The notes below the pieces were generated by a model. It saw nothing but the letters and a program-made list of their open reading frames with translations, was not told the origin of the DNA and searched no databases. Position numbers and translations under genes: made by a program. DNA of 64,000 bases. Origin: Candidatus Spyradenecus sp. Its GTDB lineage: Bacteria; Verrucomicrobiota; Kiritimatiellia; RFP12; DVOR01. Where the stretch lies: the NCBI GenBank assembly GCA_045613865.1, contig JAZLBT010000017.1, positions 19,152 to 83,151 of the forward strand, given 5' to 3'. Shown here piece after piece: positions 6,499 to 56,667 of the stretch. The number at the start of each line of letters is the position of its first letter. Positions within the stretch are counted from its first letter, which is position 1.

Positions 6499-6520
6499 TT
6501 TGTAGAAAGAGGATTTTTAA

Positions 6521-8074: not shown

Positions 8075-8086
8075 GAGAAGTCGATT

Positions 8087-10609: not shown

Positions 10610-10631
10610 TTAGGACAATCAATTGGTAAAT

Positions 10632-10670
10632 AAATAAGGCTCTCGTTTTTTGAGAGCCTTATTTATTTTT
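10632..10670. terminator. Bidirectional rho-independent terminator between mutS (+) and trmJ (-)
   Basis: Perfect 11-bp inverted repeat ATAAGGCTCTC / GAGAGCCTTAT with loop GTTTTTT, flanked by A/T runs on both sides. Confidence 0.8.
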
Positions 10671-10679
10671 AAGTTATAC

Positions 10680-11435: not shown

Positions 11436-11441
11436 AGTGTG

Positions 11442-12419
11442 TTAACGTTTGAAGAGGATTTCTGTAATGGCAATGATAGCTTCATCCCAATGAGCAAGAT
11501 CATCACAATGAATCGACTCAATCGGGGAGTGGTTACCACGCGTTGCAAGAAGAAGTGGAATGACGGGCATCATGCGTCCTAATACGGGAAAAGCGCGTGC
11601 ATCTGTGCCAGAGTAGTTATATACTTCTGTCTGCAAAGGAACCTCAAGCGCACAACATTGGTCGCGCTCCTCGGGAGAAAGAAGAACAGAATTGTCAGAC
11701 AGTGTAATCACGGGACCTTTGCCCATTTCAACATTTTGCTTCTCATTCTCATAAGTGATATCGAGAACGACTACGGCATCAGCTTTAACATCACGTGCAA
11801 GAACGTTCGCTCCAAAGCCATTCACCTCTTCCATTGCTGTTGCCGCGAGAATGACGTTGAAGTTCGGAAGTGCATGCTTGCATTGATTATACCACTCTGC
11901 GATTAATGCGCAACCGATGCGATTATCAAGGAAGGGGGAGTGGATGAGATTATCTTCTTCCTTCCAAGAAGTCTCCCAACAAAGGCGATCACCCTTTTGA
12001 ATGCGTGCGCAAGGCTCATCTAAACGGGCCTTAATAGGTTTTTGGTGGCGCCATTGAGAGGCCTCTTCGTCGTTATCGAAAATGAGCGTCGCATTAACAC
12101 GCGTTCCATCGCTACACTTGAGAACGAGCCGTTGACCATTTTCTGGATGTACGCCTCCTAATGCGAGAACTTCAATGTCAAGCGGAGAGGCGATTGAAGC
12201 AACAATAAACCCCGGGCTATCTGCGTGAGCAACGAGAAGAAGCGTATCCGCCTTACGTCGTTCTGCAGGTTCTGCAAGAATGGCATATTTACCGAGCCGT
12301 TGGATATCGAGCCCTTGGGCGCGCCAACACTCTTCAAGCATGTTGAAAACAGCACCTTCATCCCCTGGAGTGGAATGGAGTGCGCAAAACTTTTTGAGCG
12401 TAGGAATTAAATTAATCAT
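11442..12419 (-). CDS. M42-family metallopeptidase (FrvX/endoglucanase-like aminopeptidase)
   Basis: 325 aa with overall M42 architecture and conserved His/Asp/Glu-rich blocks. Four-nt overlap with the downstream gene. Confidence 0.55.
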   Translation of the reverse strand: MINLIPTLKKFCALHSTPGDEGAVFNMLEECWRAQGLDIQRLGKYAILAEPAERRKADTLLLVAHADSPGFIVASIASPLDIEVLALGGVHPENGQRLVLKCSDGTRVNATLIFDNDEEASQWRHQKPIKARLDEPCARIQKGDRLCWETSWKEEDNLIHSPFLDNRIGCALIAEWYNQCKHALPNFNVILAATAMEEVNGFGANVLARDVKADAVVVLDITYENEKQNVEMGKGPVITLSDNSVLLSPEERDQCCALEVPLQTEVYNYSGTDARAFPVLGRMMPVIPLLLATRGNHSPIESIHCDDLAHWDEAIIAITEILFKR

Positions 12420-12988
12420 GGTGCAACTTCTGTCGAAGGGGTTATAGTTTGTTCAATCGCAACGGGTTCTTCATGTTGTTGTTTGATGAAGAGCTTAGAA
12501 ATGAGAGAATCTTCACCAATTGCTCCCCAACGAATGAGTAAGCACACCGTGGTTACGCAAACAGCCGCGAGGAGAACGCCAAGCACGTTAGCAATATAAA
12601 AGGTCTTACGCTTAAAGGCAAAACAAAATGCACCGAGAGCCCCCGTTACCGCACCTGTTCCAGGGAGTGGAATGCCAATGAAAAGAGCAAGCCCCCATTG
12701 ACCATGCTTTTCCATAACGGGACGAAGGCGCTCTTGACGTTTTACAACGTGTGGCCAAATGCGTTCTTCAAAGAACTTAAATGTACGCATAATACGCAAG
12801 ATTGGAGCAAGCACTTCAAAGACGCCAATGCCAAGCAGAATGTTTGCCAAAGTACAAATTGCAACGACACTTGTCCAATGAAGCTGGTCGCTGAAGGCAA
12901 AGATACCCATTGGAATTGAAAAACGTAATTCCAATGCTGGAATACATGTGAAGACGAAAAGCCAGAAGATTGTGATAAACAAGTCCAT
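12416..12988 (-). CDS. Small integral membrane protein (COG2426-like)
   Basis: About 190 aa from the MDLFITIF start, which lies just after the CaCA stop. 4-5 transmembrane helices. No enzymatic motif. Confidence 0.5.
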   Translation of the reverse strand: MDLFITIFWLFVFTCIPALELRFSIPMGIFAFSDQLHWTSVVAICTLANILLGIGVFEVLAPILRIMRTFKFFEERIWPHVVKRQERLRPVMEKHGQWGLALFIGIPLPGTGAVTGALGAFCFAFKRKTFYIANVLGVLLAAVCVTTVCLLIRWGAIGEDSLISKLFIKQQHEEPVAIEQTITPSTEVAP

Positions 12989-13001
12989 AAATTCTTTCCT
13001 T

Positions 13002-14072
13002 TTAATTGGTGGCAAGAACAACCCAAACGGTGTAGATGAGCCATAAGATGAGGAAGAGAATACCGAGGGGTCGACCGAGTGTAATATGGGGAGAAGGCTT
13101 TTGTTTACGAATACGCGCCCAAACAATGAGTGCTGGCACCCACAAAAGGAGCGTGGAGATAATCATCGAGAAGAGATCTCGATAACGTAAACCATTGGGA
13201 AGATTTTCACCCGCAACAGGCTGAATCATTAATGCAAGCCCTGCGACAATACAAAGGTTGAAACAGTTTGAACCGATAACGTTACCGACGGCAATATCAT
13301 CCTGGCCCTTGCGTGTTGCAACAACCGATGCCATAAGCTCAGGCAGTGACGTTCCCAAAGCAATGATGGTCACGCCAACAATGAGCTGTGTCGCAGACTG
13401 CGAAATGCCCACTGCTTGTGCAACGGTTTCTGCAATCCACTTAGCAGAATAAACGAGCATCTGAGAAGAGAGAATTAAGAGGGTTAAACCACCAGCAATC
13501 GAAGCAAGCATTTTGCTAACAGACATCTGTTTTGAACAACACTCGCAGTCCTCTTCTTCACTGACTGTTGCAGTTTCACGTTGTTTCCATGCAATGCAGA
13601 TTTGGTAGGAGAGAAAGATGATAAAGATTATAAAGAGCGAGGCACCTTCAAGGCGAGAGAGCCCGTTATGAGCGCCAACACAAAATGCGCTTAAAAGGCC
13701 CATCACTCCAAGAAGAAACGGAATGTCACGTTTCAACACGATGCGATGCAACGCAATTGGTGCAATGAGCATACAAACGCCAAGAATGAGGAGAACATTG
13801 GTGATGTTACTGCCATAAGCATTACCGAGGGCAAGCACGGGGGCCCCTTGCGCTGCTGCAAGAACAGAAACAATCATTTCCGGTGCGCTCGTTCCGAAGC
13901 CAACAATCACAAAGCCAATAATCAATGGAGGAATGGCAAGACGACATGCAAGCGCAACCGCGCCCTCGACGAAAATCTCGGCACTCTTGGTCAACAAAAA
14001 CATGCCTATAATCAAACCCGCAATTGCGAGTGGCCATAACGACCATGCAGGTAAACAACTTGTAAGTAACAT
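13002..14072 (-). CDS. Sodium/calcium exchanger (CaCA family, YrbG-like)
   Basis: 356 aa. Two alpha-repeat signatures, GTSAPEM and GNVIGSN / GNAYGSNITN. Confidence 0.85.
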   Translation of the reverse strand: MLLTSCLPAWSLWPLAIAGLIIGMFLLTKSAEIFVEGAVALACRLAIPPLIIGFVIVGFGTSAPEMIVSVLAAAQGAPVLALGNAYGSNITNVLLILGVCMLIAPIALHRIVLKRDIPFLLGVMGLLSAFCVGAHNGLSRLEGASLFIIFIIFLSYQICIAWKQRETATVSEEEDCECCSKQMSVSKMLASIAGGLTLLILSSQMLVYSAKWIAETVAQAVGISQSATQLIVGVTIIALGTSLPELMASVVATRKGQDDIAVGNVIGSNCFNLCIVAGLALMIQPVAGENLPNGLRYRDLFSMIISTLLLWVPALIVWARIRKQKPSPHITLGRPLGILFLILWLIYTVWVVLATN

Positions 14073-14092
14073 CTTTGAACTCCTTTTTAAAA

Positions 14093-14959
14093 TTAAACTT
14101 CAGGACGTGTAAACCACCCCGAACGCCATTCACCGATGAGCTTATTTTCAACCTCAACAAGTCCACATGCTTCAAAGGCGGCCTTAACATCGGGATAGAG
14201 TGTATCAAGGATACCAGAGGCAATGAGTTGACCACCGGGAAGAACAGCACAGGCTACTTCCTTGGCATATTGAATCAAAACAGGACCAAGAATATTTGCC
14301 AAAATAATAGCGCCTTGATCAAGGTTGTCCGCTAAATTACGTGGTTCAAAGGGAATGTTAAGATTGTTGAGCGCGGCATTTTCTTTTGCAATGCGCACTG
14401 CATCTGGGTCATAGTCAAATCCACGAACATTGGTGAATCCAAGCTTGCACGCGGCGATGGCGAGAATACCACTTCCGCAACCCATGTCCAAAACAGGACG
14501 CTTTAAATCACCGGTCGCTAACTGATCGAGGAACTGCAAACATGCGCGTGTGGTCGGGTGCTTACCTGTTCCGAAGCTCATGCCTGGATCCAAAACAATG
14601 ACAGCCTCACCTTCAGAGGGTGTATAACTTTCCCATGAAGGACGAATGGTGATACGCTCGGAGATCTTTTCAACATGGAAGAAACGCTTCCATGCTTCTT
14701 GCCAATCTGCATTATTGAGTGTGTCACGCGTACAATTGACAGTCATCCCGGCAAGTTCAGCCGCTTGAACGAGCGCGACTTCAACCGCATCCGCCTGGGT
14801 TGCATCTTCCAAAAATACATCAAGGCGAACTTCGTGGGTCTCAATATCTTCCCAGAAGGTTGGCGTGAAAGCATCGCCATCTAAAAGCTCCAACAACAAA
14901 TCTGCCGCCTCAGAGGAGGGAAGACGTGTAGAAACAACGGTGAGCATTTGTTGAGACAT
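14093..14959 (-). CDS. prmA: Ribosomal protein L11 methyltransferase
   Basis: 288 aa. SAM-binding motif VLDMGCGSGILAIAA and PrmA-like layout. Confidence 0.85.
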   Translation of the reverse strand: MSQQMLTVVSTRLPSSEAADLLLELLDGDAFTPTFWEDIETHEVRLDVFLEDATQADAVEVALVQAAELAGMTVNCTRDTLNNADWQEAWKRFFHVEKISERITIRPSWESYTPSEGEAVIVLDPGMSFGTGKHPTTRACLQFLDQLATGDLKRPVLDMGCGSGILAIAACKLGFTNVRGFDYDPDAVRIAKENAALNNLNIPFEPRNLADNLDQGAIILANILGPVLIQYAKEVACAVLPGGQLIASGILDTLYPDVKAAFEACGLVEVENKLIGEWRSGWFTRPEV

Positions 14960-19369: not shown

Positions 19370-19452
19370 CAAACCCTATTGATTTGCTCGTCAAACCCTA
19401 TTGATTTGACCTTCAAAACCTATTGATTTCAAACGCAAAACAATAGGGTTTG
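19370..19452. repeat. Array of 4 copies of a 17-nt motif with 22-bp period (3 x CAAACCCTATTGATTTG, then 1 inverted CAAAACAATAGGGTTTG)
   Basis: Read directly. Lies in the 625-bp divergent intergenic region between the PPIase (-) and S8 protease (+) genes. The same motif recurs at 56.7 kb in the opposite orientation. Confidence 0.85.
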
Positions 19453-29278: not shown

Positions 29279-30283
29279 TTAATGAAAGAACTCGTTGTAA
29301 CGCGATGCCCAATAGGAGATAATTAAATCTGCGCCAGAGCGTGCGATTGCAGAGATACTTTCGTGGACGAGATCGGGGAGTTTGCCCCATCCTTGTTGTG
29401 CGGTTGCAATGAGCATTGAATATTCACCACTGACGTTGTAAGCTGCAACGGGGAGGGTGGTGTTGTCGCGAACGGTGCGAATCATGTCAAGATAGAAGAG
29501 TGCCGGCTTTACCATTAAGATATCTGCGCCTTCGTGTTCGTCAACAATTGATTCGAGGAGTGCATTGCGCGGGTTGCCATAGGAGGCTTGGTAGCCTTTA
29601 CGGTCTTTGGGCGCATTAGGAATAACAATGGTTGGCGCGCTATTCTCCGCATCACGGAAGGGCTCATAGCATGCCGAGGCAAACTTTGTTGAGTATGCCA
29701 TAATCATCGTATCGTCAAAGTTATTGGCCGCAAGGGCGGTACGCATGGTTTCGATTTGACCATCCATCATTGCCGAAGGTGCAACAATATCTGCCCCTGC
29801 ATTTGCATGGGAGAGCGCGACACGCGAAAGACACTCACAACCAGCATCATTATCAATCTTGCCATCCATACGCAACGGTGCACAATGACCATGATTAGTA
29901 TAGGCGCACAAACATACATCCGTGATGACAACAAGCTGAGGGAAGTTTCGTTTAATTGCGCGAATAGCGATTTGAACGGGCGCATAGTCATTCCATGCGC
30001 CAGAGCCATCATTATCTTTTTCGTACTGACTTTGCCCAAAGAGCATAACGGAGCCAATCCCCTGAGGAATGATAACCTTTTCGATTTCACGCAAGAGCAT
30101 ATCCGGCGAGAAACGATATTGTCCAGGCATGGAGGGGATCTCTTGTTTGATGCCCTTGCCTTGAACAACAAAGGTCGGCCAACACCATTTAGAGGGGCGC
30201 GGAATATCAAGGTCAAACATCGCACGTAAGCTTGGTGTACGACGCGAACGGCTTAAACGAAGATAAGGAAATGAATTCGCCAT
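29279..30283 (-). CDS. hemB: Porphobilinogen synthase (delta-aminolevulinic acid dehydratase)
   Basis: 334 aa. Active-site lysine blocks SAMMDGQIETMR and MVKPALFYLDMIR. Confidence 0.9.
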   Translation of the reverse strand: MANSFPYLRLSRSRRTPSLRAMFDLDIPRPSKWCWPTFVVQGKGIKQEIPSMPGQYRFSPDMLLREIEKVIIPQGIGSVMLFGQSQYEKDNDGSGAWNDYAPVQIAIRAIKRNFPQLVVITDVCLCAYTNHGHCAPLRMDGKIDNDAGCECLSRVALSHANAGADIVAPSAMMDGQIETMRTALAANNFDDTMIMAYSTKFASACYEPFRDAENSAPTIVIPNAPKDRKGYQASYGNPRNALLESIVDEHEGADILMVKPALFYLDMIRTVRDNTTLPVAAYNVSGEYSMLIATAQQGWGKLPDLVHESISAIARSGADLIISYWASRYNEFFH

Positions 30284-30284
30284 A

Positions 30285-30509
30285 TTATTTTTCTAATTGG
30301 AGGGGGTTAAGGAGATCGGCAACTGTTGCAAAATTTGCACACGTTGTATTGGGGAGTGTAATATTAAAGTGGAAACGGAGAAATGCCAAATAAGCAAGAA
30401 GAGCCATGGAATCCCATGTTGCATTTGCGAGCAGCATATCGGGTGTAATTGTCTCGTGGGGGACATTGATGATATCTGCAATTTCGTGAAGGGCATCTTC
30501 TTGCGTCAT
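30285..30509 (-). CDS. Acyl carrier protein-like (ACP 1)
   Basis: 74 aa. Phosphopantetheine-attachment-like site WDSMALLAYLAFLRF in a four-helix ACP-sized protein. Its stop abuts the hemB start. Confidence 0.65.
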   Translation of the reverse strand: MTQEDALHEIADIINVPHETITPDMLLANATWDSMALLAYLAFLRFHFNITLPNTTCANFATVADLLNPLQLEK

Positions 30510-30524
30510 AGGGTGTTTCTTTCG

Positions 30525-31496
30525 TTATTCAATTGTAAACGTCGGGAGGACGTTATCAAAATCAAGTTGTAAATGCGCTGCGAGTGTTGTTAGACCAACT
30601 CCAAAGGCTGCGAGCACGACCGTTTTTGCGCCAACATAACCTTCCGCAGCAAGATCGCACATTAAGAGTGGTAAACTTGCGACCGAAGTGTTGCCACGCT
30701 GTTTCATACGGCAAGGAACAACTGCAGGGTCAAGGCGACACATCCGTGCAATTTGCTGCAAGATAAAGGCATTGGCTTGGTGAAGCAAATAAAGGTCAGG
30801 TTGTGCAAGCGAGGCATCGGCTAAAAGCGTTTGGATTTGCTGAGGCACCGCAGAAATGGAGAAGTTGAAAACCTCCGTTCCTTGCATTTGGAAATAGCCG
30901 TCATGTGGGATTGAAATCGCTTGAGAAGGAATACTTGCACTTTCAAAAACCCACGGTGTTGCGGTTGGGTCGCGACCGACAATGGCTGCGAAACCTGCAT
31001 CGCCAAAGAGCATTGCTGCTGTGGCATCATCAGGATCAACGCAACGCGAGAGGGTGTCACCACCCATTATCAGAACATTTCGTACCGCAGGGTTCTGAAG
31101 GAAATGTGCAGCGGTTAAAAGACCCGAGAGAAACCCTGCGCATCCTTGATTAATATCGAGAGCAAAAAGGTGCTGACCTAAGGCGAGAGCCTCTTGCAAA
31201 CGACATGCAGTAGGTGGCGCAACGCAATCGGGTGTTTGGGTGATGAAAAGAAGAACATCAATTTCATCCCTTGCAATAGCGGTTTTCTCAAAGAGCGTTT
31301 GCGCGGCAGCAAGTGCGAGATCAGAGGTTTTTTGTTCAGGACGAGCAATATGAATTTCGTGAACACCAACAACCTGTTTAAAGCGTTCAACTTTTGCTTC
31401 ACCGAAGCGCTCTACAAATGAATCAACGGCACATGTTTGTTTGGGTAATGCCGTTGCAATTCCTCGGAGTTTGCAGGATTGAAAAACTTCACGCAT
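30525..31496 (-). CDS. 3-oxoacyl-ACP synthase III (FabH-like KAS III)
   Basis: Cys (NQGCAGF), His (HQANAFI) and Asn (GNTSVASLP) triad. ATG at 31496 overlaps the upstream ACP stop as ATGcgTGA. The ORF track begins 5 codons earlier at a TTG. Confidence 0.85.
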   Translation of the reverse strand: MREVFQSCKLRGIATALPKQTCAVDSFVERFGEAKVERFKQVVGVHEIHIARPEQKTSDLALAAAQTLFEKTAIARDEIDVLLFITQTPDCVAPPTACRLQEALALGQHLFALDINQGCAGFLSGLLTAAHFLQNPAVRNVLIMGGDTLSRCVDPDDATAAMLFGDAGFAAIVGRDPTATPWVFESASIPSQAISIPHDGYFQMQGTEVFNFSISAVPQQIQTLLADASLAQPDLYLLHQANAFILQQIARMCRLDPAVVPCRMKQRGNTSVASLPLLMCDLAAEGYVGAKTVVLAAFGVGLTTLAAHLQLDFDNVLPTFTIE

Positions 31497-31722
31497 GTTG
31501 ACGCTCCTCAATCACAGCGATTAATGCGGGAATTGTGGTGATGGCAAAGAGTTCGGTCGCGCGAAAGCGAATCTGAAAACGTTTTTCAATTTCCATCATC
31601 AATGAGAGATGTGCAACCGAATCCCATCCCGGAAGCTCGGCAATGGTTGCACATTCGAATCCTGCCGGCATTGGTTGCCGAAGGACGTCACAAAAACAGA
31701 GAGCGAGCTGTTGCGAAATCAT
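31489..31722 (-). CDS. Acyl carrier protein (ACP 2)
   Basis: About 77 aa from MISQQ. GWDSVAHLSLMMEIEKRF phosphopantetheine site. Start overlaps the FkbH-like stop (ATGA). Confidence 0.7.
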   Translation of the reverse strand: MISQQLALCFCDVLRQPMPAGFECATIAELPGWDSVAHLSLMMEIEKRFQIRFRATELFAITTIPALIAVIEERQHA

Positions 31723-33191
31723 GGCAAAGGAACTCCATTCTCTTGGTAGAGATTTGCACAAAGCGTGTTACGCTCTGTCGGCTGGTAACGACCGCAAAGT
31801 TCAGGTATCATTGATTTGAGATGGGAGAGAATACGCTGTTCAATTCCGCGACCAAAGGCACGACAGCTCATCACCCAAGAGACAATTTCATTTTGCTCAA
31901 GAATGACCACACTAATGAGCCCCATATCGCCATATCTATCCTTGAGTCGATAGACCCAACCCTTCCGATTTAGAAGTTCCTCAGCCGTGTGACGCGTATT
32001 ACACATGTTGAAGCGATTGCAACGTTGAGAGAGCTGGGCGGCACGTTCGACATTTTGAGCCGACAATGGTTCGGGCGTGAGTTGCTGTTCAAGACTTGCA
32101 AGATAGTCTTCTTGCGAAAGCGTCTCTGCTAGAGCGAGACGTTGTTGGTTGGATTTAATCGACTGTGCGCGAAGCGCATCATCTTCGGTAATCGCAAGCG
32201 TTTCAAAGCCCGTTAATGACGAAAGCACATCCATCCAACAAGTGCTATCCTCGGGCAGTTCAGGCACAAGCACATCAGGACATTGTGCACGAACTTCATT
32301 GCGGTTTTCAATGCGATCATCGATGAACACAAGACTGCTTGTATGAACACCTAGCTGTTCTGCAATTCGCTTCAGCATTTCAGATTTAGGCACATCCCAT
32401 GCGACTTGAACAGCCGCAAAATCCTCGAGCGAAAAATCAAGATCATCGCGTGCGAAGGCTTCTTGTACAGTTGCGATTTCATTTCGCGATGCAATGGCAA
32501 GTAGAATTCCGCGTTGTGCAAGCGTCTTTAGCCATGCACGATATGCGCATCGAGAGGAATCTTCGGGATGAATCCCCTGAGCGCCGACATCACTCACAAT
32601 TCCTGACCAAAAGGTGTCATCAAGGTCTGTCACAAGCACCTTACGAACTTCACCACGCATAACGCGAAGTGTTGCGAGGATACGCTCTGCAAGAAGTTCT
32701 GTAGCGGTTGGGGTTAACGCAACTGCGGCCATGTGCCATAAGCGTGCATCAAAACATTGGCGATGCCCAAGGTCCGACACGAGACGTTCAAGATCGATGA
32801 GATGAAGATTATGTTGCGTTTGTGCGCGTTCGAGCAAGTCATGATTCCATTGTGCAAGACGTGCGCGTAAACTTGATGGTGCGAGGAGTGCATAGTTTCC
32901 GAAGGCGCCTTCATCAAGGATGGGTAAATTGCAAATGAGCCAATGATAGGGAAGTGCTAGCAAAGGCTCAATCGAAGGGAGCTGATGCGTTCGCGCTTGT
33001 TCCGAACAAAGCCAATAGCAAACCGCCTCTGGTTGAAAGGTCGCAAGTTCATCTTGAACGGCAAGAGGTGACGTGAAGCCCCATACCTTCAATTCAATTG
33101 CAAACCCTTGCGCTTGTGCGAGGGAGAGCAATGCGCGTTCTAAGAATTGCGGTGCACTATCAGTAAAGAGCGCGAGACGAAAAGGCTTCAT
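31719..33191 (-). CDS. FkbH-like protein (HAD-superfamily subfamily IIIC phosphatase-like domain)
   Basis: 490 aa. HAD motif I VLVTDLDDTFWSGIV (DxDxT) embedded in an FkbH-type two-domain architecture. ATGA overlap with the upstream GT gene. Confidence 0.7.
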   Translation of the reverse strand: MKPFRLALFTDSAPQFLERALLSLAQAQGFAIELKVWGFTSPLAVQDELATFQPEAVCYWLCSEQARTHQLPSIEPLLALPYHWLICNLPILDEGAFGNYALLAPSSLRARLAQWNHDLLERAQTQHNLHLIDLERLVSDLGHRQCFDARLWHMAAVALTPTATELLAERILATLRVMRGEVRKVLVTDLDDTFWSGIVSDVGAQGIHPEDSSRCAYRAWLKTLAQRGILLAIASRNEIATVQEAFARDDLDFSLEDFAAVQVAWDVPKSEMLKRIAEQLGVHTSSLVFIDDRIENRNEVRAQCPDVLVPELPEDSTCWMDVLSSLTGFETLAITEDDALRAQSIKSNQQRLALAETLSQEDYLASLEQQLTPEPLSAQNVERAAQLSQRCNRFNMCNTRHTAEELLNRKGWVYRLKDRYGDMGLISVVILEQNEIVSWVMSCRAFGRGIEQRILSHLKSMIPELCGRYQPTERNTLCANLYQENGVPLP

Positions 33192-34339
33192 GCGTCATTC
33201 TCTCCAATCGCGAGTGCATAGCATCGACGCACTTCTTCAATTTGTGCGTTGAGGTTGTGTTCCTTTGTGATGGTCTCATACGCAGCTTGCGCATGGCTAT
33301 AACAAAGGTTGGTATCCACAATGTGTTGAAGAATCGCCTCTGCAATGGTTTGCGCGTCTGAGGCAACCATCATTGCGTTGTCGTGGTTAAGCAACGTTTG
33401 ATAAGCGGGGCAACGGATTGCAAGAACTGCACGTCGAGCAGCCATTACATCAATGAGTTTCGCAGGTGCAATAGGTCCAGAGATTGCCGGCATAAAAACT
33501 AAATGCGTACTATCAAGGATATCTAACAAGGCATTTGAATTTGAGAGTGCCGGTCGCACCGCAACGCGACTCATAAGTTCGCCAAGACGTTCTTTCAAAC
33601 GTATACGGAAACGTTCGGTTTCTCGCGGAGTAGAACCGATGATTTCAACGTGAAGTGGCGCATGCGCTAAAAGCGTGGGAAGTGTTTCGCAAAAGGTGTT
33701 AAGATCACCCAAATCAGTTGTCATTCCGATTGCAACAAGGCGGAAGGGACTTCGTGGTGTTCGAGAGGTGAGGCTTTGCAACGAGAGCATTTTGATTGCT
33801 GGCGATGGTAACACTTGAAGAACCGCAATGCGGCCATTCACCTCAATTTGACGCAAACGCGAAAGCGGGTAGGGGATGTCCGAGAAGATCATGTTGACCG
33901 ACCGACGGAAACACCGAGCACGCTTAGAAAGCCATCGCATAAGATCGCGTCCAGAGTACGTGGTGTGCCATTCAAAAATGAAAGGCTTACGAGAGAGCCA
34001 CGTCAAAATGCCACAACAACGAATCGCACGATCCGAACAGTGAATCGCGTCATAATGTTCGCGAAACGACAATCGCAAGGCCGCTAAGAAGATAACAATC
34101 GATGCCCAAATACGCCGGATTCCACGCCCATACAATGGCAATGATCGCACGCAAGGAACGCGTGCCGCAAGAAAACGATTACGGACAAGTCCCTCTGGCC
34201 ACGGATCGCCACCAGGCAAAGAAAGCACATCCACCTCATGCCCTGCACCTTTTAAGAGATACAACATCTGTACGGCGCGGCGCGCATGTTCGCTGCCGGC
34301 ACGATGGGGTTGAGCATAGAGATAGAGAATCTTAGCCAT
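33188..34339 (-). CDS. Glycosyltransferase, GT4-like (GT-B fold)
   Basis: 383 aa. N-terminal KILYLY...GAGHEVDV GT4-type Rossmann and a C-terminal GT1/4 domain. Confidence 0.6.
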   Translation of the reverse strand: MAKILYLYAQPHRAGSEHARRAVQMLYLLKGAGHEVDVLSLPGGDPWPEGLVRNRFLAARVPCVRSLPLYGRGIRRIWASIVIFLAALRLSFREHYDAIHCSDRAIRCCGILTWLSRKPFIFEWHTTYSGRDLMRWLSKRARCFRRSVNMIFSDIPYPLSRLRQIEVNGRIAVLQVLPSPAIKMLSLQSLTSRTPRSPFRLVAIGMTTDLGDLNTFCETLPTLLAHAPLHVEIIGSTPRETERFRIRLKERLGELMSRVAVRPALSNSNALLDILDSTHLVFMPAISGPIAPAKLIDVMAARRAVLAIRCPAYQTLLNHDNAMMVASDAQTIAEAILQHIVDTNLCYSHAQAAYETITKEHNLNAQIEEVRRCYALAIGENDA

Positions 34340-34350
34340 ACTGAAAATGC

Positions 34351-35250
34351 TTAAAGTAACTTAACCTGTGCGCCTTGACGATGCGGGTGCATCTTGCGAA
34401 TCGTCCATTCAACATTTAATCCCTTGGTAAACTGACGAATCTGTTTGCCAAAGGTGTCATCATCATCAATAACAACAGCAACAATCGTTGGGCCTGCGCC
34501 AGAAATATAGGTCGCAACAGCATCGGTTTGTTCAACACAAAAACGCATCACATCTTCACCTTGAGGAATCAGCTGCAAACGATATTCCTGGTGAATGCGA
34601 TCCTTACTTCCTGCGCGAATCAAACGCGCATCTGCACGTTCAAGACCTTCCAACAAAATCGGCACACGAGAAAGGTTGTAAACGCAATCCGTCAACGTAT
34701 ACGTCTTTGGCAATGCCGCACGCGCAGCTTCTGTTGGTACGCGCACATCTGGCATCATCGCGTAAAAACTGATGCGATCGCTAATAGGATAACGATGCCA
34801 ATAGACAAGACCATCTTCGACAATTGCAGCTACAAAGCCTCCGAGAATTGCTGGCGCAACGTTATCAGGGTGACCTTCAATTAAGGTTGTCGTGCGTAAG
34901 ATTTGTTCTGTATCCATCGACAAATTGCCAATCACATTTGCCGCCATTACCCCAGCAACAATACATGTCGAACTTGATCCTAAGCCAGAACAAACCGGTA
35001 AATCCGTATCAAACGTGATTTTTAAATTTGGCGTTGCATGCCCATGTTGCGCTAATACCTTGGTTAGCGTTGTGTAAAGTAAGTTATTCTCAGGTTCAGC
35101 AAATTCTGGCAAACACCCCTCAATGACAAGACGTTGAGAACAATCGGTGTCGAATGTAAAGCGATTATACATATCAAACGCAATGCCCATCACGTCAAAT
35201 CCGGGGCCTACGTTTGCACTTGTGGCAGGAATAGAAATCTTAAATCGCAT
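34351..35250 (-). CDS. thrB: Homoserine kinase (GHMP kinase)
   Basis: 299 aa. PATSANVGPGFD, GSGLGSSS and EGHPDNVAPAILGG signatures of ThrB. Confidence 0.85.
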   Translation of the reverse strand: MRFKISIPATSANVGPGFDVMGIAFDMYNRFTFDTDCSQRLVIEGCLPEFAEPENNLLYTTLTKVLAQHGHATPNLKITFDTDLPVCSGLGSSSTCIVAGVMAANVIGNLSMDTEQILRTTTLIEGHPDNVAPAILGGFVAAIVEDGLVYWHRYPISDRISFYAMMPDVRVPTEAARAALPKTYTLTDCVYNLSRVPILLEGLERADARLIRAGSKDRIHQEYRLQLIPQGEDVMRFCVEQTDAVATYISGAGPTIVAVVIDDDDTFGKQIRQFTKGLNVEWTIRKMHPHRQGAQVKLL

Positions 35251-35767: not shown

Positions 35768-35803
35768 TATAAAAACAAAAAATCCCCGTTGTTCACGGAG
35801 ACC
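35768..35803 (-). terminator. Terminator hairpin downstream of tRNA-Ala
   Basis: TCTCCGTG / ACGGGGA stem with loop AACA. Followed by a U-run on the minus-strand transcript and T-rich sequence on the plus strand. Confidence 0.55.
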
Positions 35804-35824
35804 TTTTTTACATTTCCTTTTTTA

Positions 35825-35900
35825 TGGTGGAGGTAAGGAGAGTCGAACTCCTGACCTTTTGAATGCCATTCAAACGCTCTACCAACTGAGCTATACCCCC
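35825..35900 (-). tRNA. tRNA-Ala (anticodon GGC)
   Basis: Reverse complement GGGGGTATAGCTCAGTTGGTAGAGCGTTTGAATGGCATTCAAAAGGTCAGGAGTTCGACTCTCCTTACCTCCACCA. Cloverleaf folds, G3:U70 identity pair, anticodon loop ATGGCAT, encoded CCA. Confidence 0.9.
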
Positions 35901-36071: not shown

Positions 36072-36203
36072 TCATTTAGGTACGGTTTGATTGTCATTTA
36101 GGTGCTGTTTGAACGTCATTTAGGTGCTGTTTGATTCTCGTTTAGGTGCTGTTTGAACGTCATTTAGGTGCTGTTTGATTCTCGTTTAGATGCTGTTTGA
36201 TAA
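36072..36203. repeat. 6 contiguous tandem copies of a 22-bp unit TC(A/G)TTTAGGTGCTGTTTGA(ACG/TTC)
   Basis: Read directly. Variants alternate between GAACG and GATTC ends. No spacers, so it is not a CRISPR array. An inverted half-site (CACCTAAA) sits just upstream at about 36047. Confidence 0.9.
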
Positions 36204-37610: not shown

Positions 37611-37768
37611 GGAATGTTTCACTCGGACTTACGAGACGCGCTGCAGAAATGTGGCGCGTTTGTTGTTTTAAGGTGTTTACAAGAAAGAACAGGTGGGGGG
37701 TGTTTTAGATTTTCATAGAAAAATGTGGCTGAAAGTGATATTATATATGTATAAAGATGGGGAATCGC

Positions 37769-40700
37769 ATGAAATTATTATTTGCTCTTTTATCACTCTT
37801 TTTTGTGACGGCATTTGCGCGCGCAGAATTGACTTATTGTGTCTATGACATTGCAACAAAGACGGCAACCCAATTGGATGCCTCGAATGTTACGGTCATA
37901 GATGAGAATTATCGGAATGGGTCAAAGATTCTTTTTGTTCAAGATTCTGCAATTTCGACTGATTATTATATCGGGGTGTTTGAACTTACAAATGCTCAAG
38001 CATCCGCATTGGGGTGGACTGTTTTAAGTAGTATGACGTCATATGCGGGGACGGGGAGTGGTTTTTCTCCGCCTGCGGTGAGTGCCTATGATCAAGCACT
38101 TTCATTTCCAACAGTGGATCAGTGGCTCGCTTATGCAGGCACGCCACAGGAGATAGAGAAAGGTGTGTGTGAATACAATGTTCATTTTGGATGTTATAAT
38201 GTTCTTGGTCGACTGACAACATCAAGCACGTTGGAGGCTTGGATTGAACGCGAGGCATGGCCGTATGCTTCTAGCCATGGTACGTATGATATTTTTGGTA
38301 ATGTTGCGGAATATACGCAAGACGGCACCTTTCATGGGGGGGCATCTGCTTTTGATCCAAATAGTGCAATAACCTATAACGATCTTTGTAATTTAGCATC
38401 TACGAATTATGCATTGACCAATGATCACGAGGAAAAACACTATCTTGGTGTGCGTTTAGTATATACGCCACAAGTAGAGGGTGCTTATGATGTTTATTTG
38501 CGTGTGGAGGAGGGTGAGGTTAGAACAAATGGAACCCCTCAGGCCGAGGGCACTTATGCGGGCACGTATAAGTGTGATCGTAGATCCGCAGTTGCTTTCG
38601 TTTCAACGCTTCAACTCCCACAGTGGGCAGAGGCTTACACGGCAACATATGTTGAAGTAGAAGGTGGAGAAGAGAAAACGATTCAAGGTTCTTATACGCC
38701 AAATGAAGATGGGGAATTTGAATTCTCAGTTCCTGCGTGGATTCCGATTCAAGCCGTGATAACGTTGACACCAACGATTGCAACGTATCCCAAAGTGCAG
38801 TTTGAGAATATTGAGGTGGAGATTGTAAGCGGCGAAGCCTTTAATGCAACGTATTATCTTCCAGGAACAAAACTTTCGCTCACACCGAGTACGCTTGAAC
38901 ATCATACGTTTGTCAAATGGTCGGATGATAAGACCGCGACGCCTTATTCATTGACGTTGGAAAAGAATCAAACGTACATATTATCACCCGTTTATGATAA
39001 AGAACCTCATGTGACGATTACTAATGGTTCGGCAACTGTCACTGCCGGAGAAAGTACGGGTGATGGTTATTATCGCGTTGGAACAGAGATTGTGATTGTC
39101 CCAGAAGATCGCACGAGAACGGAATATCAAGCATTTTATCGTTGGGTTTATGGTAGTGCGTATGATACGACGGCAGAAAAACAGGTTGGGCCTTTAAAGG
39201 CAAATGATGTTTTGACTTATGAAGCCACTTATCAATATTATCCTAAAGTGATTGTGAATGATGGCGAGGTTGAGGTTCTTCAAGGGGAGGATCTTGGAGA
39301 AAACCATTATACTGCTAATGCAAGCCTTAAACTAAAAGCTAAGGATAAGACAAGTGAATGCAAGGTTTTTACGCGTTGGTCTGAAAATAGCACATCTACA
39401 AATACTGAGATTACAATAACCGCAGGCGCTTTAAAAGTTAAAGAACCCGCAACGGCAACTTATACTGCAAACTATGGAATGGCTCCTCAAGTACAAGTTG
39501 TGGGTGCGACGGTTAGTGTCGTTAGCGGTGAGGCATATGGGAATGGCTATTATAGCGTTGGTGCGCAATTGAAGTTGACGCCGACACCGGCTGTGCGTGA
39601 GGTCTTCCAATCGTGGACAGTGACAGGCGGTTCTCAACCGAGTGCACAAGGGGATGGAACGTACATTGTTGATGTTCCTGCCGTGGAGAAGGTTGCGACT
39701 TATACAGCGACGTTTGCTTCTGCGCCTCGCGTGATGGTCGAAAATGGCACAATAACCCTCGCCTCCGGCGCCGACCTTGGCAATGGTTATTACAGCGTGG
39801 GCTCGAAATTGACGTTAAAGGCGACTGCACCGAAATATGGAACATTTTATCAGTGGAAGAAGGACTCTACCATCGTGTCTACGAGTGAATCGTATACGAT
39901 TACGGTGCCTACTTCTGGTGAACAAAAGTTTGTCGCGACATTTCAGTCTTATCCGCGTGTATTTGTTAATGGCGCAAAGGTTGTTGTGACAAGTGGAACA
40001 AGTTATGGTGATGGTTATTATAGTGTAAATGCACAGTTGGAATTAACGCCAACTGTTCCCACGGGTTATAAGTTTACAAAGTGGTCGAATGATTCGACGA
40101 ATATTCCACTTACGATTAGAGCAAAGGGATATAATTCTAAAGAGAGCTATACCGCCAAATATGAAATTCAATCCGTGACAGCACAAACGGGGCATGCACT
40201 TGGCGGAATGGAGAATTTGCCTTTCGGCTGGTATGCCTCTGAAACGAAAACGTTGACTTTCGGCTCGAATACCTATACATATCCAGTCCTGAAGCGGGCT
40301 ACGACTGCGGTTGTAACGTTTGAAAATTTGACGACAACGAGTAATGTAGGCTATGATCAAACATCGTTTGATGATTCAACAAAGTTGACGTTTAAGTATG
40401 TTGACCCATTACAAATTGATAATAACTTGGATTTTGGAAATAAACCGTTTGCGGGAAACGGCACAATGAAATCAAAGGATGAGCTTCGAGCAATTCAACC
40501 TTATTATCTCGCGATGACAGAGGTGTCAAAACGTCAGGCGTATACGTGGGATAGTAAAAATGGAGGTTTAGAGGCGATTCCTTATGAAGTCTCGTCGTTA
40601 AGTGCTGCAGAAAGTGCAATCGCCGCAATGACGGGGAAATTTACGGCTTCAACAAAGACAACGGTGCGTCCAACGTTTGGTTTGCCCACATTGGGACAAC

Positions 40701-41863
40701 TCCAAGCTGCTGCAATTTTAGGATACACGAAGGCGAATCAAGAAAAGGGCGAAGCGCTTCAGACGGCGGTTTATTCTTACGCAGAACAAGGTGGGAATGA
40801 GTATCCAAATAAAACTATTGCTGCCGTAAATAGTGCGAATGTTGGTCAAACAAAAGCAGGTTTTTATGGCCTTATCGGGAATGCCGCAGAATGGATGGAT
40901 GGAGACTCGACAAACGTTTACGCAGGTGGTTTTTGGAGTAATAATGTTGGTGTTTACATAGTTCAAACAGCGACCAAAATGAAAGGTTGGGGGATGCGTC
41001 CCCTAATTACAACAGAAAATATCGAGTGCGTGAATGTGACGCTATCAATAGGTGGTAAATCCGAGACGTTTGCGTTTCAAAAGAATGCAACGATTAATCT
41101 TGGGACTCCAACAATGGCGAATAAGCGTTTCCTCGGGTGGCGCGTTGGTTCGAGTATAACAACGTCAAATGCAACAACGTTTAAGGTTACGGGTGCGACA
41201 ACCTATACCGCTGTATATGACGATTTAGTGCTTTCAACCATTACCTATATCGATTGCAATGGGGCGACATCATTACCGAAGGGTGCAACAACGGTTGTTT
41301 ATCCAACACCTGAAGGTGTAACAAAGACCTTTGCACGTTGGGAAGTGACGGGTGGCACGATGTCTGGCAATGTCTTTACCCCGACAGCTGCAACTGCGAC
41401 GGTCAAGGCCCTTTATACGACTACCGTTTCGACTGTAAGTTATGTGGATTGTACGGGACCGCAGTATGTTTCTATTGGCTCATCGGTACAAGTCTATTAC
41501 ACGCCTTCTACGGATCCAACAAAGACCTTTGATCGTTGGGTTGTAACGGGTGGCACGATGTCTGGTAATGTTTTCACGCCGACGGCTGAAAATGCGACGG
41601 TAAAGGCGACCTACAAGTCAAATGTAGTGGATGTTGTTTATGTGAATTGTTCGGGTCCCAAGACGATACGATTAGGTGGATCAGAACAAATTTATTATGT
41701 TGATCCTCCTGTTGGACAGGTATTTGATGGTTGGTCGGTTAGCGGGGATGCTACGATTGATAATAAGGGCGTTCTTACGGTGAAGGCAACGGCAACTGGG
41801 TCTCTCACAGTAACTGCGAATTATAAGAAAAATGCGCGGGGCTATATTCTTCGTTTAAAATAG
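37769..41863 (+). CDS. Large secreted multidomain protein: two degenerate FGE-sulfatase (SUMF1/DUF323)-like domains plus about 10 Listeria/Bacteroides-type B repeats (Flg_new-like)
   Basis: Signal peptide MKLLFALLSLFFVTAFA. Domain 1 contains YDIFGNVAEYTQDG...HYLGVRLVY. Domain 2 contains GFYGLIGNAAEWMDGD...GGFW...GWGMRPL. Repeats follow the pattern F(T/Q/A/D)(R/K/S/G)W with blocks ending ...TYTA.Y. Near-identical repeats at the C-terminus. Confidence 0.6.
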   Translation: MKLLFALLSLFFVTAFARAELTYCVYDIATKTATQLDASNVTVIDENYRNGSKILFVQDSAISTDYYIGVFELTNAQASALGWTVLSSMTSYAGTGSGFSPPAVSAYDQALSFPTVDQWLAYAGTPQEIEKGVCEYNVHFGCYNVLGRLTTSSTLEAWIEREAWPYASSHGTYDIFGNVAEYTQDGTFHGGASAFDPNSAITYNDLCNLASTNYALTNDHEEKHYLGVRLVYTPQVEGAYDVYLRVEEGEVRTNGTPQAEGTYAGTYKCDRRSAVAFVSTLQLPQWAEAYTATYVEVEGGEEKTIQGSYTPNEDGEFEFSVPAWIPIQAVITLTPTIATYPKVQFENIEVEIVSGEAFNATYYLPGTKLSLTPSTLEHHTFVKWSDDKTATPYSLTLEKNQTYILSPVYDKEPHVTITNGSATVTAGESTGDGYYRVGTEIVIVPEDRTRTEYQAFYRWVYGSAYDTTAEKQVGPLKANDVLTYEATYQYYPKVIVNDGEVEVLQGEDLGENHYTANASLKLKAKDKTSECKVFTRWSENSTSTNTEITITAGALKVKEPATATYTANYGMAPQVQVVGATVSVVSGEAYGNGYYSVGAQLKLTPTPAVREVFQSWTVTGGSQPSAQGDGTYIVDVPAVEKVATYTATFASAPRVMVENGTITLASGADLGNGYYSVGSKLTLKATAPKYGTFYQWKKDSTIVSTSESYTITVPTSGEQKFVATFQSYPRVFVNGAKVVVTSGTSYGDGYYSVNAQLELTPTVPTGYKFTKWSNDSTNIPLTIRAKGYNSKESYTAKYEIQSVTAQTGHALGGMENLPFGWYASETKTLTFGSNTYTYPVLKRATTAVVTFENLTTTSNVGYDQTSFDDSTKLTFKYVDPLQIDNNLDFGNKPFAGNGTMKSKDELRAIQPYYLAMTEVSKRQAYTWDSKNGGLEAIPYEVSSLSAAESAIAAMTGKFTASTKTTVRPTFGLPTLGQLQAAAILGYTKANQEKGEALQTAVYSYAEQGGNEYPNKTIAAVNSANVGQTKAGFYGLIGNAAEWMDGDSTNVYAGGFWSNNVGVYIVQTATKMKGWGMRPLITTENIECVNVTLSIGGKSETFAFQKNATINLGTPTMANKRFLGWRVGSSITTSNATTFKVTGATTYTAVYDDLVLSTITYIDCNGATSLPKGATTVVYPTPEGVTKTFARWEVTGGTMSGNVFTPTAATATVKALYTTTVSTVSYVDCTGPQYVSIGSSVQVYYTPSTDPTKTFDRWVVTGGTMSGNVFTPTAENATVKATYKSNVVDVVYVNCSGPKTIRLGGSEQIYYVDPPVGQVFDGWSVSGDATIDNKGVLTVKATATGSLTVTANYKKNARGYILRLK

Positions 41864-56495: not shown

Positions 56496-56667
56496 ACCCG
56501 ATAGTATACCACAAAATCACTCCATAATACATATTATATTATTCCAATGTGTATGATTAAACAGTGTATAGTAACGTTATGGGGGCAAAAAGAGGAAAAT
56601 GAATGATGTTTTACCTTCTGCATCATACAAAAAATGTCAGCAAATTTGTGAGGAAAAGGTCTCACAT

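Follow-up and report, generated by a model that had tools for sequence, protein, structure and literature searches.

The 64,000-nucleotide stretch of DNA analysed here (the window) carries five co-directional genes on its minus strand in the order GT-FkbH-ACP1-KAS III-ACP2, flanked upstream by thrB (homoserine kinase; 34351..35250, minus strand; TIGR00191, 239 bits, cutoff 168) and downstream by hemB (porphobilinogen synthase; 29279..30283, minus strand; ALAD, 386 bits), the latter as context only. The first gene (33188..34339) is predicted to encode a divergent GT4-fold (GT-B) glycosyltransferase-like protein of 383 aa. It is followed by an FkbH-domain gene (31719..33191; 490 aa), whose product combines an SGNH-like N-domain (residues 1-178), a HAD-IIIC phosphatase domain and a C-terminal acyl-S-enzyme/transfer domain. 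The remaining genes encode a carrier protein, ACP1 (31489..31722; 77 aa; GWDSVAHL), a specialised FabH-like KAS III (30525..31496; 323 aa) and a second carrier protein, ACP2 (30285..30509; 74 aa; TWDSMALL). Both carriers match the PP-binding domain above its cutoff and each has the WDS serine. Read from the sequence, 11 nt separate the thrB stop from the GT ATG, the GT/FkbH and FkbH/ACP1 junctions are ATGA overlaps, ACP1 and KAS III overlap at ATGCGTGA, and the KAS III stop lies 15 nt from ACP2, with 1 nt between the ACP2 stop and hemB. The mechanical ORF list took upstream TTG codons as starts (KAS III as 31511..30525). Given these overlaps and the orthologue lengths of 77 and 323 aa at the related locus L094, the listed TTG codons are not the starts and the true starts are 31722 for ACP1 and 31496 for KAS III. 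Profile matches, alignments and the junction sequence bear out the initial annotation in its five minus-strand ORFs and their coordinates, its gene calls, motifs and translational coupling, and its setting between thrB and hemB.

All five genes occur at identical lengths in one relative, with proteins 65-84% identical and dN far below saturated dS, which rules out chance ORFs. More distantly related genomes, over 12 of them, also have the five genes. Moreover, gut MAGs that carry the label Kiritimatiellae or Lentisphaeraceae keep the order thrB-GT-FkbH-ACP-KAS-ACP between variable outer flanks, a pattern of core genes inherited vertically rather than of an accessory gene cluster. Wherever a clade locus extends far enough, thrB (79-91% identical) adjoins the cassette; it is probably co-transcribed with it, its membership of the pathway being putative and drawn from context only. 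Adjacency to hemB is common only to the two closest relatives, L006 and L094, with other genes replacing it elsewhere. A tRNA-Ala(GGC) followed by a terminator-like hairpin (35777..35900, minus strand; Rfam tRNA match, 69.7 bits, with ARAGORN in agreement; terminator-like site at 35807..35777, minus strand, 3′ of the tRNA) likely forms the upstream boundary of a transcription unit crcB-thrB-cassette-hemB-xerD. Three related loci (L015-L017) contain an FkbH orthologue with the other cassette genes not adjoining.

The initial annotation had allowed that the FkbH-domain protein might be a plain phosphatase without a glyceryl-loading domain. This is not so. The protein scores 222.6 bits against the TIGR01686 FkbH domain (cutoff 146.65); it also matches TIGR01681 HAD-IIIC (48.8 bits) and, partially, PF21211 (FkbH_N). 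HAD motif I reads DLDDT (D189/D191/T193), C443, the cysteine of an S-enzyme-type 'SCR' motif, is invariant across 74 homologues, and in alignment the protein keeps all residues that do not vary among FkbH proteins of the tetronate and glycan types. The clade proteins end without a C-terminal segment of ~30 residues that every other FkbH protein in the comparison has. For OzmB, the mechanism runs through a phosphoglyceryl-S-enzyme, its dephosphorylation and transfer to an ACP (PMC9057759). Since the TIGR01686 cutoff is exceeded and all residues common to tetronate-type proteins are retained, it is plausible that FkbH and its ACP together form glyceryl-S-ACP, a step of both the tetronate and the methoxymalonyl-ACP pathways. 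In the latter (FkbG-K / OzmB,D,E,F,G) an FkbH/OzmB-type enzyme carries it out on a stand-alone ACP; however, dehydrogenases of the FkbK/OzmG and FkbI/OzmD kinds are missing from the window, as are an O-methyltransferase and a PKS to take up the extender unit. Among 67 unrelated loci, an ACP adjoins FkbH in 30, the other recurrent neighbours being polysaccharide deacetylase, GNAT, GT4, DegT, PglF/PglD-like, TylF-like O-methyltransferase and MBOAT genes.

The KAS III carries ACP_syn_III and ACP_syn_III_C domains, and its Cys-His-Asn residues, retained in all clade KAS proteins, align with C112/H244/N274 of E. coli FabH, a triad that decarboxylative Claisen condensation requires (PMC5724707). Given an intact triad, surrounding housekeeping genes and no second KAS III in the 64 kb window, this enzyme could be the organism's FabH and one ACP its AcpP, both chance neighbours of an unrelated phosphatase and glycosyltransferase. 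We regard this as highly improbable. The protein falls well under both fabH cutoffs (TIGR00747, 169 against 292 bits; NF006829, 202 against 249 bits), which settles against a housekeeping FabH the check proposed in the initial annotation, and it shares 27% identity with E. coli FabH. Its gene evolves faster (dN 0.21) than the housekeeping genes around it (0.06-0.17 for thrB, hemB and xerD) and has no adjacent fabD, fabG or fabF, and both ACPs reach 16-20 bits with AcpP models that require 66-71. Moreover, its closest relatives are accessory KAS III enzymes: the nearest outside the clade (39-45% identical) lie in ACP-KAS-SDR modules of surface-glycan loci, where KAS-ACP-KAS-SDR cassettes have Wzy, GTs, LicD, FdtA and Bac_transf as neighbours. 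In the tree, the window KAS is placed within such glycan-locus KAS III enzymes, with the tetronate FabH-like family as a distant outgroup.

That placement bears on the RK-682/agglomerin-type reading of the initial annotation, by which the FabH-like enzyme would condense a fatty-acid-derived 3-oxoacyl thioester, possibly on ACP2, with glyceryl-ACP1 to give a 3-acyl-5-hydroxymethyl-tetronate, then glycosylated by the GT. The glyceryl-loading half of this proposal is plausible, and the FkbH, ACP and FabH-like set matches the core of the glycerate-utilisation operon (PMC7489565, PMC3625739). The window shares with such operons (RkD/RkE/RkF, Agg1-3, ChlM/ChlD1/ChlD2, AbyA1-A3, Mad16/7/8) the FkbH catalytic motifs, a dedicated ACP immediately downstream of FkbH, a KAS III-fold enzyme encoded within the operon and the same likely first step, from 1,3-bisphosphoglycerate to glyceryl-S-ACP. 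Moreover, an Ala in place of Phe87 would widen the acyl pocket of the KAS, which could in principle first make 3-oxoacyl-ACP2. The condensing half is not supported. The tetronate FabH-like family, as anchored on the Streptomyces abyssomicinicus operon KAS-FkbH-ACP-2-oxoacid_dh-hydrolase-PKS and with RkD and Agg1 outside the compared set, has Cys-Pro-Asn in 120/120 sequences (His244 always Pro), whereas the window KAS has Cys-His-Asn and is 26% identical to it. The window FkbH is nearer to glycan-locus or MBOAT-linked FkbH (29-34% identity) than to tetronate FkbH (24-25%), and has the SGNH-like FkbH_N domain that the Pfam model does not detect in the actinomycete tetronate proteins. The 64 kb window adds a second ACP and a GT but holds no PKS, as had been noted from the outset, no source of a long 3-oxoacyl chain and no Agg4/Agg5-like genes. 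Finally, the cassette is conserved vertically, next to thrB, in the core genome of a Gram-negative gut lineage, whereas tetronate operons belong to actinomycete gene clusters. With the KAS, FkbH and both ACPs all closest to glycan-locus types, the assignment to an RkD/Agg1/ChlM-type module is not supported, and we consider even a minimal tetronate pathway of this kind improbable.

The glycan-locus systems used for comparison are KAS III-ACP-KAS III-SDR and FkbH-ACP cassettes (for example L042, L035, L086-L090, the Campylobacter cj1302 region and B. fragilis BF1531, PDB 3slr), whose roles are putative and biochemically uncharacterised. Outside the clade, ACP1 best matches ACPs whose genes directly follow FkbH genes in other phyla, while ACP2 shares 30-32% identity (E 1e-12 to 1e-14) with ACPs of KAS-ACP-KAS-SDR cassettes and is only weakly similar to FkbH-partner ACPs. 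By sequence similarity, ACP1 is thus of the FkbH-partner type and ACP2 of the glycan-KAS-partner type. Compared with the surface-glycan cassettes, the window has two ACPs rather than one, lacks the SDR ketoreductase and second KAS, lies among housekeeping genes and has a GT of its own clade. Among the gene calls in the window, no sugar-nucleotide (including sugar-nucleotide-modifying), flippase, polymerase or acyltransferase genes, such as accompany those cassettes, lie near it; the link to glycans therefore rests on homology of the parts.

The different classes of the two ACPs could mean that the cassette supplies two independent acyl donors, a glyceroyl group from FkbH/ACP1 and an acetoacetyl- or other 3-oxoacyl-ACP2 made by the KAS from acyl-CoA and malonyl-ACP2, both acyls being placed on a surface glycan or glycolipid with other genes outside the window while the GT4 adds one sugar. 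Each module occurs without the other, and the two may therefore work independently. KAS-ACP-KAS-SDR cassettes exist without FkbH, and FkbH-ACP pairs without KAS are found as FkbH-ACP-MBOAT (Dlt-like) cassettes in Bacteroidaceae and on Sinorhizobium meliloti pSymB. The latter, with an implied role in the cell envelope, share the FkbH subtype with FkbH_N and the class of partner ACP, but have no KAS III, second ACP or GT, whereas the window has no MBOAT. The FkbH-domain gene cj1302 is likewise part of the Campylobacter flagellar glycosylation locus (PMC7099621). However, neither cassette nor window encodes an MBOAT, GNAT, hexapeptide or Acyl_transf_3 acyltransferase for delivery, and the coupling of FkbH, ACP1 and KAS together with the invariant clade-wide order of the five genes suggests one pathway. 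Moreover, the glycan loci L042 and L035 contain KAS-SDR-KAS-ACP-FkbH cassettes in which a single ACP serves FkbH and KAS enzymes alike, implying that the FkbH-loaded ACP feeds the KAS III there. Two separate donors are thus possible but, in our view, rather unlikely.

The glycosyltransferase-like protein matches Glyco_transf_4 (38.2 bits) and Glyco_trans_1_4 (35.9 bits), both above the Pfam cutoffs. Its AF2 model (pLDDT 94.5, pTM 0.92) has as best Foldseek matches the retaining GT4 enzymes BshA, MshA, a mannosyltransferase and sucrose-phosphate synthase (TM ~0.7, 12-15% identity). Homologues are scarce, with 29 representatives of 1.84 billion matching at E<=1e-10. As modelled, it is a clade-restricted, degenerate GT4 with a confident GT4 fold. 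BshA and MshA glycosylate small hydroxylated acceptors, and the acceptor of BshA is the 2-OH of L-malate, a small hydroxy acid chemically similar to glycerate. The type of acceptor cannot be read from this likeness, since E-values barely separate BshA/MshA from other GT4 enzymes. Moreover, in contrast to BshA and MshA, the window protein lacks the GRL..KG motif with the usual diphosphate-binding Arg/Lys and the first Glu of EX7E, one acidic residue (LID) being conserved, and its activity and donor are therefore uncertain.

Taken together, these data lead us to favour, tentatively, a lineage-specific two-carrier acyl-building operon that joins an FkbH+ACP module and a KAS III+ACP module to a private GT4-fold transferase. 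By analogy, the two modules would elsewhere serve cell-surface glycan modification. Going by family membership and conserved residues, FkbH would react with 1,3-bisphosphoglycerate to form phosphoglyceryl-S-Cys443, its HAD domain would strip the 3-phosphate and the D-glyceryl group would pass to holo-ACP1. ACP2 would be malonylated by the cell's FabD, which we assume. The simplest primer for the KAS III cysteine would be the glyceryl unit carried by ACP1. Relatives of this KAS that have no FkbH are presumably primed with acetyl-CoA, and the residues aligned to the pocket (L142, F157, I189 and F205) are hydrophobic, a composition that offers no specific argument for a polar glyceryl primer. With the full decarboxylation machinery (His and Asn) in place, condensation with malonyl-ACP2 would yield 4,5-dihydroxy-3-oxopentanoyl-ACP2, a C5 beta-keto-diol. 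Since the five-gene cassette includes neither ketoreductase nor thioesterase, this beta-keto-gamma-hydroxy thioester may self-lactonise off ACP2 as 5-hydroxymethyl-tetronic acid or go to an acceptor. The GT4-fold protein may then glycosylate a hydroxyl group on the glycerate-derived unit or couple the unit to a glycoconjugate.

In summary, the cassette is a core operon that one gut PVC lineage has conserved, not a patchy gene cluster, and its product is probably a glycerate-derived sugar conjugate rather than a classical acyl-tetronate antibiotic.

All five genes claimed in the initial annotation are present on the minus strand at 30285-34339, in the order glycosyltransferase (GT, 383 aa), FkbH-like protein (490 aa), ACP1, KAS III and ACP2. 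Pfam and NCBIfam call them a GT4-type glycosyltransferase, an FkbH-domain protein, two PP-binding proteins and a KAS III with both ACP_syn_III domains. The HAD DxDxT motif (DLDDT) and the KAS Cys-His-Asn residues are intact as described, and so is the WDS serine of both ACPs. Translational coupling can likewise be read from the sequence, with overlaps of ATGA at GT/FkbH, ATGA at FkbH/ACP1 and ATGCGTGA at ACP1/KAS. Together with orthologue lengths, these overlaps show that ACP1 truly begins at 31722 (giving 77 aa) and the KAS at 31496 (giving 323 aa). The other junctions, also read from the sequence, are gaps of 11 nt (thrB-GT), 15 nt (KAS-ACP2) and 1 nt (ACP2-hemB). Upstream of the thrB-cassette unit lie crcB, a terminator-like hairpin and a tRNA-Ala; the tRNA was the sole match in an Rfam scan of 28-38 kb, and no terminator-like site convincingly breaks up the cassette. 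PADLOC returned no defence-system match. The housekeeping setting also holds, as the cassette sits between thrB (239 bits against TIGR00191, above cutoff) and hemB, and the remainder of the 64 kb window encodes ClpB, PBP2, XerD, SurA, Tex, RsmB, RibD and other housekeeping functions.

A large internal duplication was suspected from the composition profile and ruled out by self-BLAST, which shows 60-90-nt repeats only. The ORF at 37757-41863 encodes a 1368-aa secreted protein, probably surface adhesin-like, with many internal repeats of ~70-90 aa (recurring GDGYYSVG...LTPTP motifs) and a 90-nt DNA repeat that is 85% identical (41320-41409 and 41518-41607). Shorter intergenic repeats (~60-65 nt, 84-88% identical) occupy low-GC strand-switch regions, one pair inverted (19370-19432 and 56667-56751) and one in tandem (36072-36135 and 36138-36201) just upstream of the tRNA-Ala/crcB/thrB unit. 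These may be REP-like elements or regulatory repeats.

Homologues of FkbH (47-87% identical) and of the KAS (49-75%) form a clade drawn solely from MAGs labelled Kiritimatiellae, Lentisphaeraceae or Candidatus Spyradenecus, mostly from animal guts. Outside this clade identity falls sharply, to at most 35% for FkbH and 45% for the KAS; the window FkbH protein has no exact match in the contig index. The order thrB-GT-FkbH-ACP-KAS-ACP is kept in every contig of sufficient length, while the outer genes vary: FtsW, rpsO or a Cas12a CRISPR locus can precede the block, and a rotamase, pseudopilins, a methyltransferase or hemB can follow it. In the CRISPR case (L005, 1637-7281) a type V (Cas12a/Cpf1) system comprising Cas12a, Cas4, Cas1 and Cas2 lies directly upstream of thrB and the cassette. 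Three contigs labelled Lentisphaeraceae or Spyradenecus (L015, 7971-9482; L016; L017) carry an FkbH orthologue of ~50% identity without an adjoining GT, ACPs or KAS; in L015 its neighbours are a phosphate ABC transporter (PstS/C/A-like) and a 486-aa protein without Pfam match.

Compared with the closest relative (L094), all five genes are equal in length. As dN is 0.18-0.31 while dS is saturated, which leaves dN/dS unquantifiable for most genes, the cassette genes appear to be under purifying selection, yet faster-evolving than thrB (dN 0.064), hemB (0.12) and xerD (0.17). Given the conserved order, the varying outer genes, this selection and the housekeeping window, the cassette bears the signature of a vertically inherited core operon and not of a mobile biosynthetic cluster. 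The sole gene constantly adjoining it is thrB. Across L001-L014, L026 and L094, ThrB keeps a length of 299 aa without any indel and is 79-91% identical, compared with 37-75% identity for the cassette proteins; the other neighbours in the closest relatives are 73-83% (HemB), 77-79% (XerD) and 61-73% (PBP2) identical. The constancy of thrB may be due to co-transcription, to a constraint of unusual strength or to a functional connection. A role for ThrB as a pathway enzyme was considered and is unsupported; the protein passes the homoserine-kinase equivalog cutoff.

The FkbH protein matches both profiles named for it in the initial annotation. It scores 222.6 bits against TIGR01686 (cutoff 146.65), with residues 182-486 covering profile positions 2-318 of 323, and also matches TIGR01681 (HAD-IIIC). 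The whole TIGR01686 domain is thus present, and the protein is not a plain phosphatase. In size this region is comparable to OzmB (366 aa), the minimal characterised enzyme, which converts 1,3-bisphosphoglycerate to a phosphoglyceryl-S-enzyme, dephosphorylates it and then moves the glyceryl group to an ACP (reviewed in PMC9057759). Across 74 homologues DLDDT, S235, K269, D291/D292 and S442-C443-R444 do not vary, and the tetronate FkbH of Streptomyces abyssomicinicus has them too. Indeed, the window protein keeps every residue invariant across tetronate- and glycan-type proteins (HAD motifs I-IV, an NQFN-like motif and S442-C443-R444). From its invariance we infer that C443 is the catalytic Cys, able to carry an acyl-S-enzyme intermediate. 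An AF2 model (pLDDT 94) predicts an SGNH-hydrolase-like N-domain, an MDP-1-like HAD domain and a C-terminal alpha/beta domain. In the clade the N-domain is shortened and ~30 C-terminal residues, present in all other FkbH proteins compared, are absent. The predicted pairing of FkbH with a dedicated ACP stands, but its assignment to the tetronate type is not supported, as the protein is nearer to glycan-locus and Bacteroidaceae proteins (29-34% identity) than to the tetronate FkbH (24-25%). Moreover, it has the FkbH_N domain (PF21211), as do glycan-locus proteins, and its sole solved relative is BF1531 of B. fragilis.

The initial annotation read the cassette as an RK-682/agglomerin-type acyl-tetronate module. 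The glycerate-utilisation operon of tetronate pathways combines an FkbH-like enzyme and an ACP with a FabH-like enzyme responsible for both the C-C and the C-O bond; an acyltransferase/eliminase pair is usually present as well (PMC7489565, PMC3625739). Searching with FkbH recovered an actinomycete locus (L068) in which SARP-KAS-FkbH adjoins a KS-AT-ACP PKS. Its KAS defines a large actinomycete family that includes the gene of S. abyssomicinicus, whose locus is the canonical KAS-FkbH(673 aa)-ACP-2-oxoacid_dh-hydrolase-TE-PKS. In this family, anchored on the S. abyssomicinicus operon with the RkD and Agg1 sequences outside the comparison, Cys-Pro-Asn is found in 120/120 retrieved members (P0241-P0360; loci L068, L092, L093), a PPQLSG motif replacing His244 of E. 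coli FabH. The window KAS and all 13 clade orthologues examined instead have Cys-His-Asn when aligned to C112/H244/N274 of E. coli FabH. This triad is needed for malonyl decarboxylation and enolisation (PMC5724707), and it is that of a decarboxylating KAS III (thiolase superfamily, CHN subgroup). The window KAS shares 26% identity over 185 aa with the tetronate family (E 3e-13), compared with E 1e-31 for its match to E. coli FabH. In a neighbour-joining tree the window KAS clade is monophyletic (96% bootstrap) within a radiation of accessory KAS III. E. coli FabH falls outside this radiation, and the tetronate family is an outgroup on a long branch (100% bootstrap). Triad, identity and tree therefore argue against an RkD/ChlM-type enzyme, with the family represented as anchored here. 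A pathway source of the 3-oxoacyl thioester was also lacking: the 64 kb window holds no PKS, no Agg4/Agg5-like gene and no 2-oxoacid_dh-type acyltransferase or alpha/beta-hydrolase. The FkbH/ACP chemistry of the initial reading is plausible, while its tetronate-family membership is not supported, and we consider the classical 3-acyl-tetronate route quite improbable. The same residues offer a discriminator for genome mining, with Cys-Pro-Asn marking tetronate-forming FabH-like enzymes and Cys-His-Asn decarboxylating KAS III. An FkbH match on an Erwinia rhapontici plasmid (H1) was considered as an agglomerin-like cluster and rejected, having no KAS and a different gene set. That locus (L095, pERA53, 4958-14686) encodes an 837-aa FkbH-domain protein in a different small-molecule-type cluster with a PLP aminotransferase, CDP-alcohol phosphatidyltransferase, HAD hydrolase, SDR, ATP-grasp enzyme and MFS transporter.

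Initiation of housekeeping fatty-acid synthesis would be another role for the KAS. However, the protein falls below both curated FabH cutoffs (169.2 vs 292.1 bits for TIGR00747; 201.7 vs 249 for NF006829) and so is not a housekeeping FabH, no fabD, fabG or fabF lies near it, and it does not cluster with E. coli FabH. We regard this role as scarcely credible. Inspection of pocket and CoA-contact residues did not discriminate between primers.

The nearest KAS relatives outside the clade (39-45%) lie in KAS-ACP-KAS-SDR cassettes flanked by Wzy, several GTs, LicD, FdtA, hexapeptide and GNAT acyltransferases and Bac_transf, flanks that identify surface-glycan loci. Two further loci have KAS-SDR-KAS-ACP-FkbH with RmlD-like, DegT, Bac_transf, a MurJ/Wzx-like flippase and GTs. 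ACP2 resembles the ACPs of these KAS cassettes (WDSMA(M/L)L; 30-32% identical, E 1e-12 to 1e-14), so that both KAS and ACP2 have their nearest-neighbour kin there, whereas ACP1 resembles FkbH-partner ACPs (WDSxxH motif). Since KAS, FkbH and both ACPs match module types of glycan loci, the cassette is, on these relationships, a composite of an FkbH+ACP and a KAS+ACP module, each of a kind that serves to modify cell-surface glycans. Unlike the window, however, the glycan-locus cassettes carry an SDR ketoreductase and sugar-nucleotide, transferase, flippase or polymerase neighbours. The window holds no sugar-nucleotide genes. The cassette could supply two separate acyl donors for a glycan made elsewhere, which we hold to be possible but rather unlikely. 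It also differs from the methoxymalonyl-ACP pathway (FkbG-K), in which the FkbK and FkbI dehydrogenases and the FkbG O-methyltransferase accompany FkbH/FkbJ; these are absent from cassette and window.

Among 67 unrelated FkbH loci, an ACP was present in 30 (directly downstream in 20), alongside polysaccharide deacetylase (15), MaoC-SDR (13), GNAT-like proteins (9 and 8), GT4 (8), DegT (7), TylF-like O-methyltransferase (7), PglF-like (6), PglD-like (6) and MBOAT (4). The FkbH-ACP-MBOAT arrangement recurs (L076, 7341-11018; L018, 228-3755; L096 on S. meliloti pSymB, 5196-10230) and is known here from Bacteroidaceae and S. meliloti; it is similar to the Dlt D-alanylation system, with FkbH standing where the loader would be. 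The S. meliloti cassette has an additional gene annotated as a TonB-dependent receptor. This arrangement suggests that a polymer is O-acylated outside the cytoplasm with a group derived from glycerate. The flagellar glycosylation locus of Campylobacter also includes an FkbH-domain gene, cj1302 (PMC7099621).

The predicted fold of the GT is unambiguously GT4/GT-B. Both Pfam GT4 domains, N- and C-terminal, exceed their cutoffs, and Foldseek matched the AF2 model (pLDDT 94.5) to BshA, MshA and PimA at probability 1.00. The best structural matches, at TM ~0.7, were BshA, MshA, methylmannose-polysaccharide mannosyltransferase, sucrose-phosphate synthase and PimA. The putative GT is extremely divergent in sequence, with 256 matches at E<=1e-3, 29 at E<=1e-10 and 9 at E<=1e-30 among 1.84 billion representatives, and one marginal match in the PDB. 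It lacks the GRL..KG motif and the first Glu of EX7E; all that the clade conserves of these motifs is an Asp where the second Glu would be. A relative outside the clade (L097, 29% identity) has unrelated neighbours and no association with FkbH or KAS.

Starting from the gene set and its translational coupling, together with the conserved catalytic residues, the family relationships and the clade conservation observed here, we propose the following scheme. FkbH would load a glyceryl unit onto ACP1, ACP2 would bear malonyl, and the Cys-His-Asn KAS would carry out a decarboxylative Claisen condensation. The most economical primer would be the glyceryl group of the translationally coupled ACP1, yielding 4,5-dihydroxy-3-oxopentanoyl-ACP2. 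Lactonisation of this beta-keto-gamma-hydroxy thioester could yield 5-hydroxymethyl-tetronic acid; alternatively, the thioester could go on to an acceptor. The putative GT would attach a sugar or couple the unit to a glycoconjugate. The cassette encodes no ketoreductase, thioesterase or acyltransferase. We favour the condensation of glyceryl-ACP1 with malonyl-ACP2, followed by the GT step, only tentatively, putting its chance somewhat below even. That the cassette is a PKS-free minimal route, in which the KAS III and the two loaded ACPs give self-released 5-hydroxymethyl-tetronic acid for glycosylation by the orphan GT4, we consider unlikely. If true, however, a whole uncultured gut Kiritimatiellae/Lentisphaerae lineage would use a core operon to make, constitutively, a small glycosylated C5 tetronate or beta-keto-diol metabolite not known before. 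The cassette may be a mechanistically new route to a tetronate-type ring, which would be a second, mechanistically distinct biological way to form it.

As the initial annotation held, no description of the cassette was found in the searchable literature, which offered nothing relevant beyond the mention of Campylobacter cj1302 and papers on tetronate and methoxymalonyl pathways. The cassette is built from known module types, in a lineage in which no cultured, characterised representative carries it. FkbH/ACP pairs are the textbook source of the glycerate units found in polyketide and tetronate antibiotics. The loci compared here show that, judged by gene neighbourhood, such pairs outside actinomycetes lie mostly in cell-surface glycan loci, and to our knowledge no member from these loci has been characterised. 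The present cassette, kept as a core operon by an uncultured gut PVC lineage, is the most reduced version seen, with two carrier proteins, one FkbH, one KAS III predicted to be fully competent and one private GT. Solving it would define the joint product of a glyceryl-ACP and a decarboxylating KAS III, and would give a handle on the much larger FkbH/KAS III family whose cassettes lie in loci for capsule, O-antigen and flagellin glycans, for example in Campylobacter and Bacteroides. It is thus a compact, testable entry to the uncharacterised FkbH/KAS III cassettes of glycan loci, and might bring to light a new class of envelope component or metabolite in Kiritimatiellota/Lentisphaerota.
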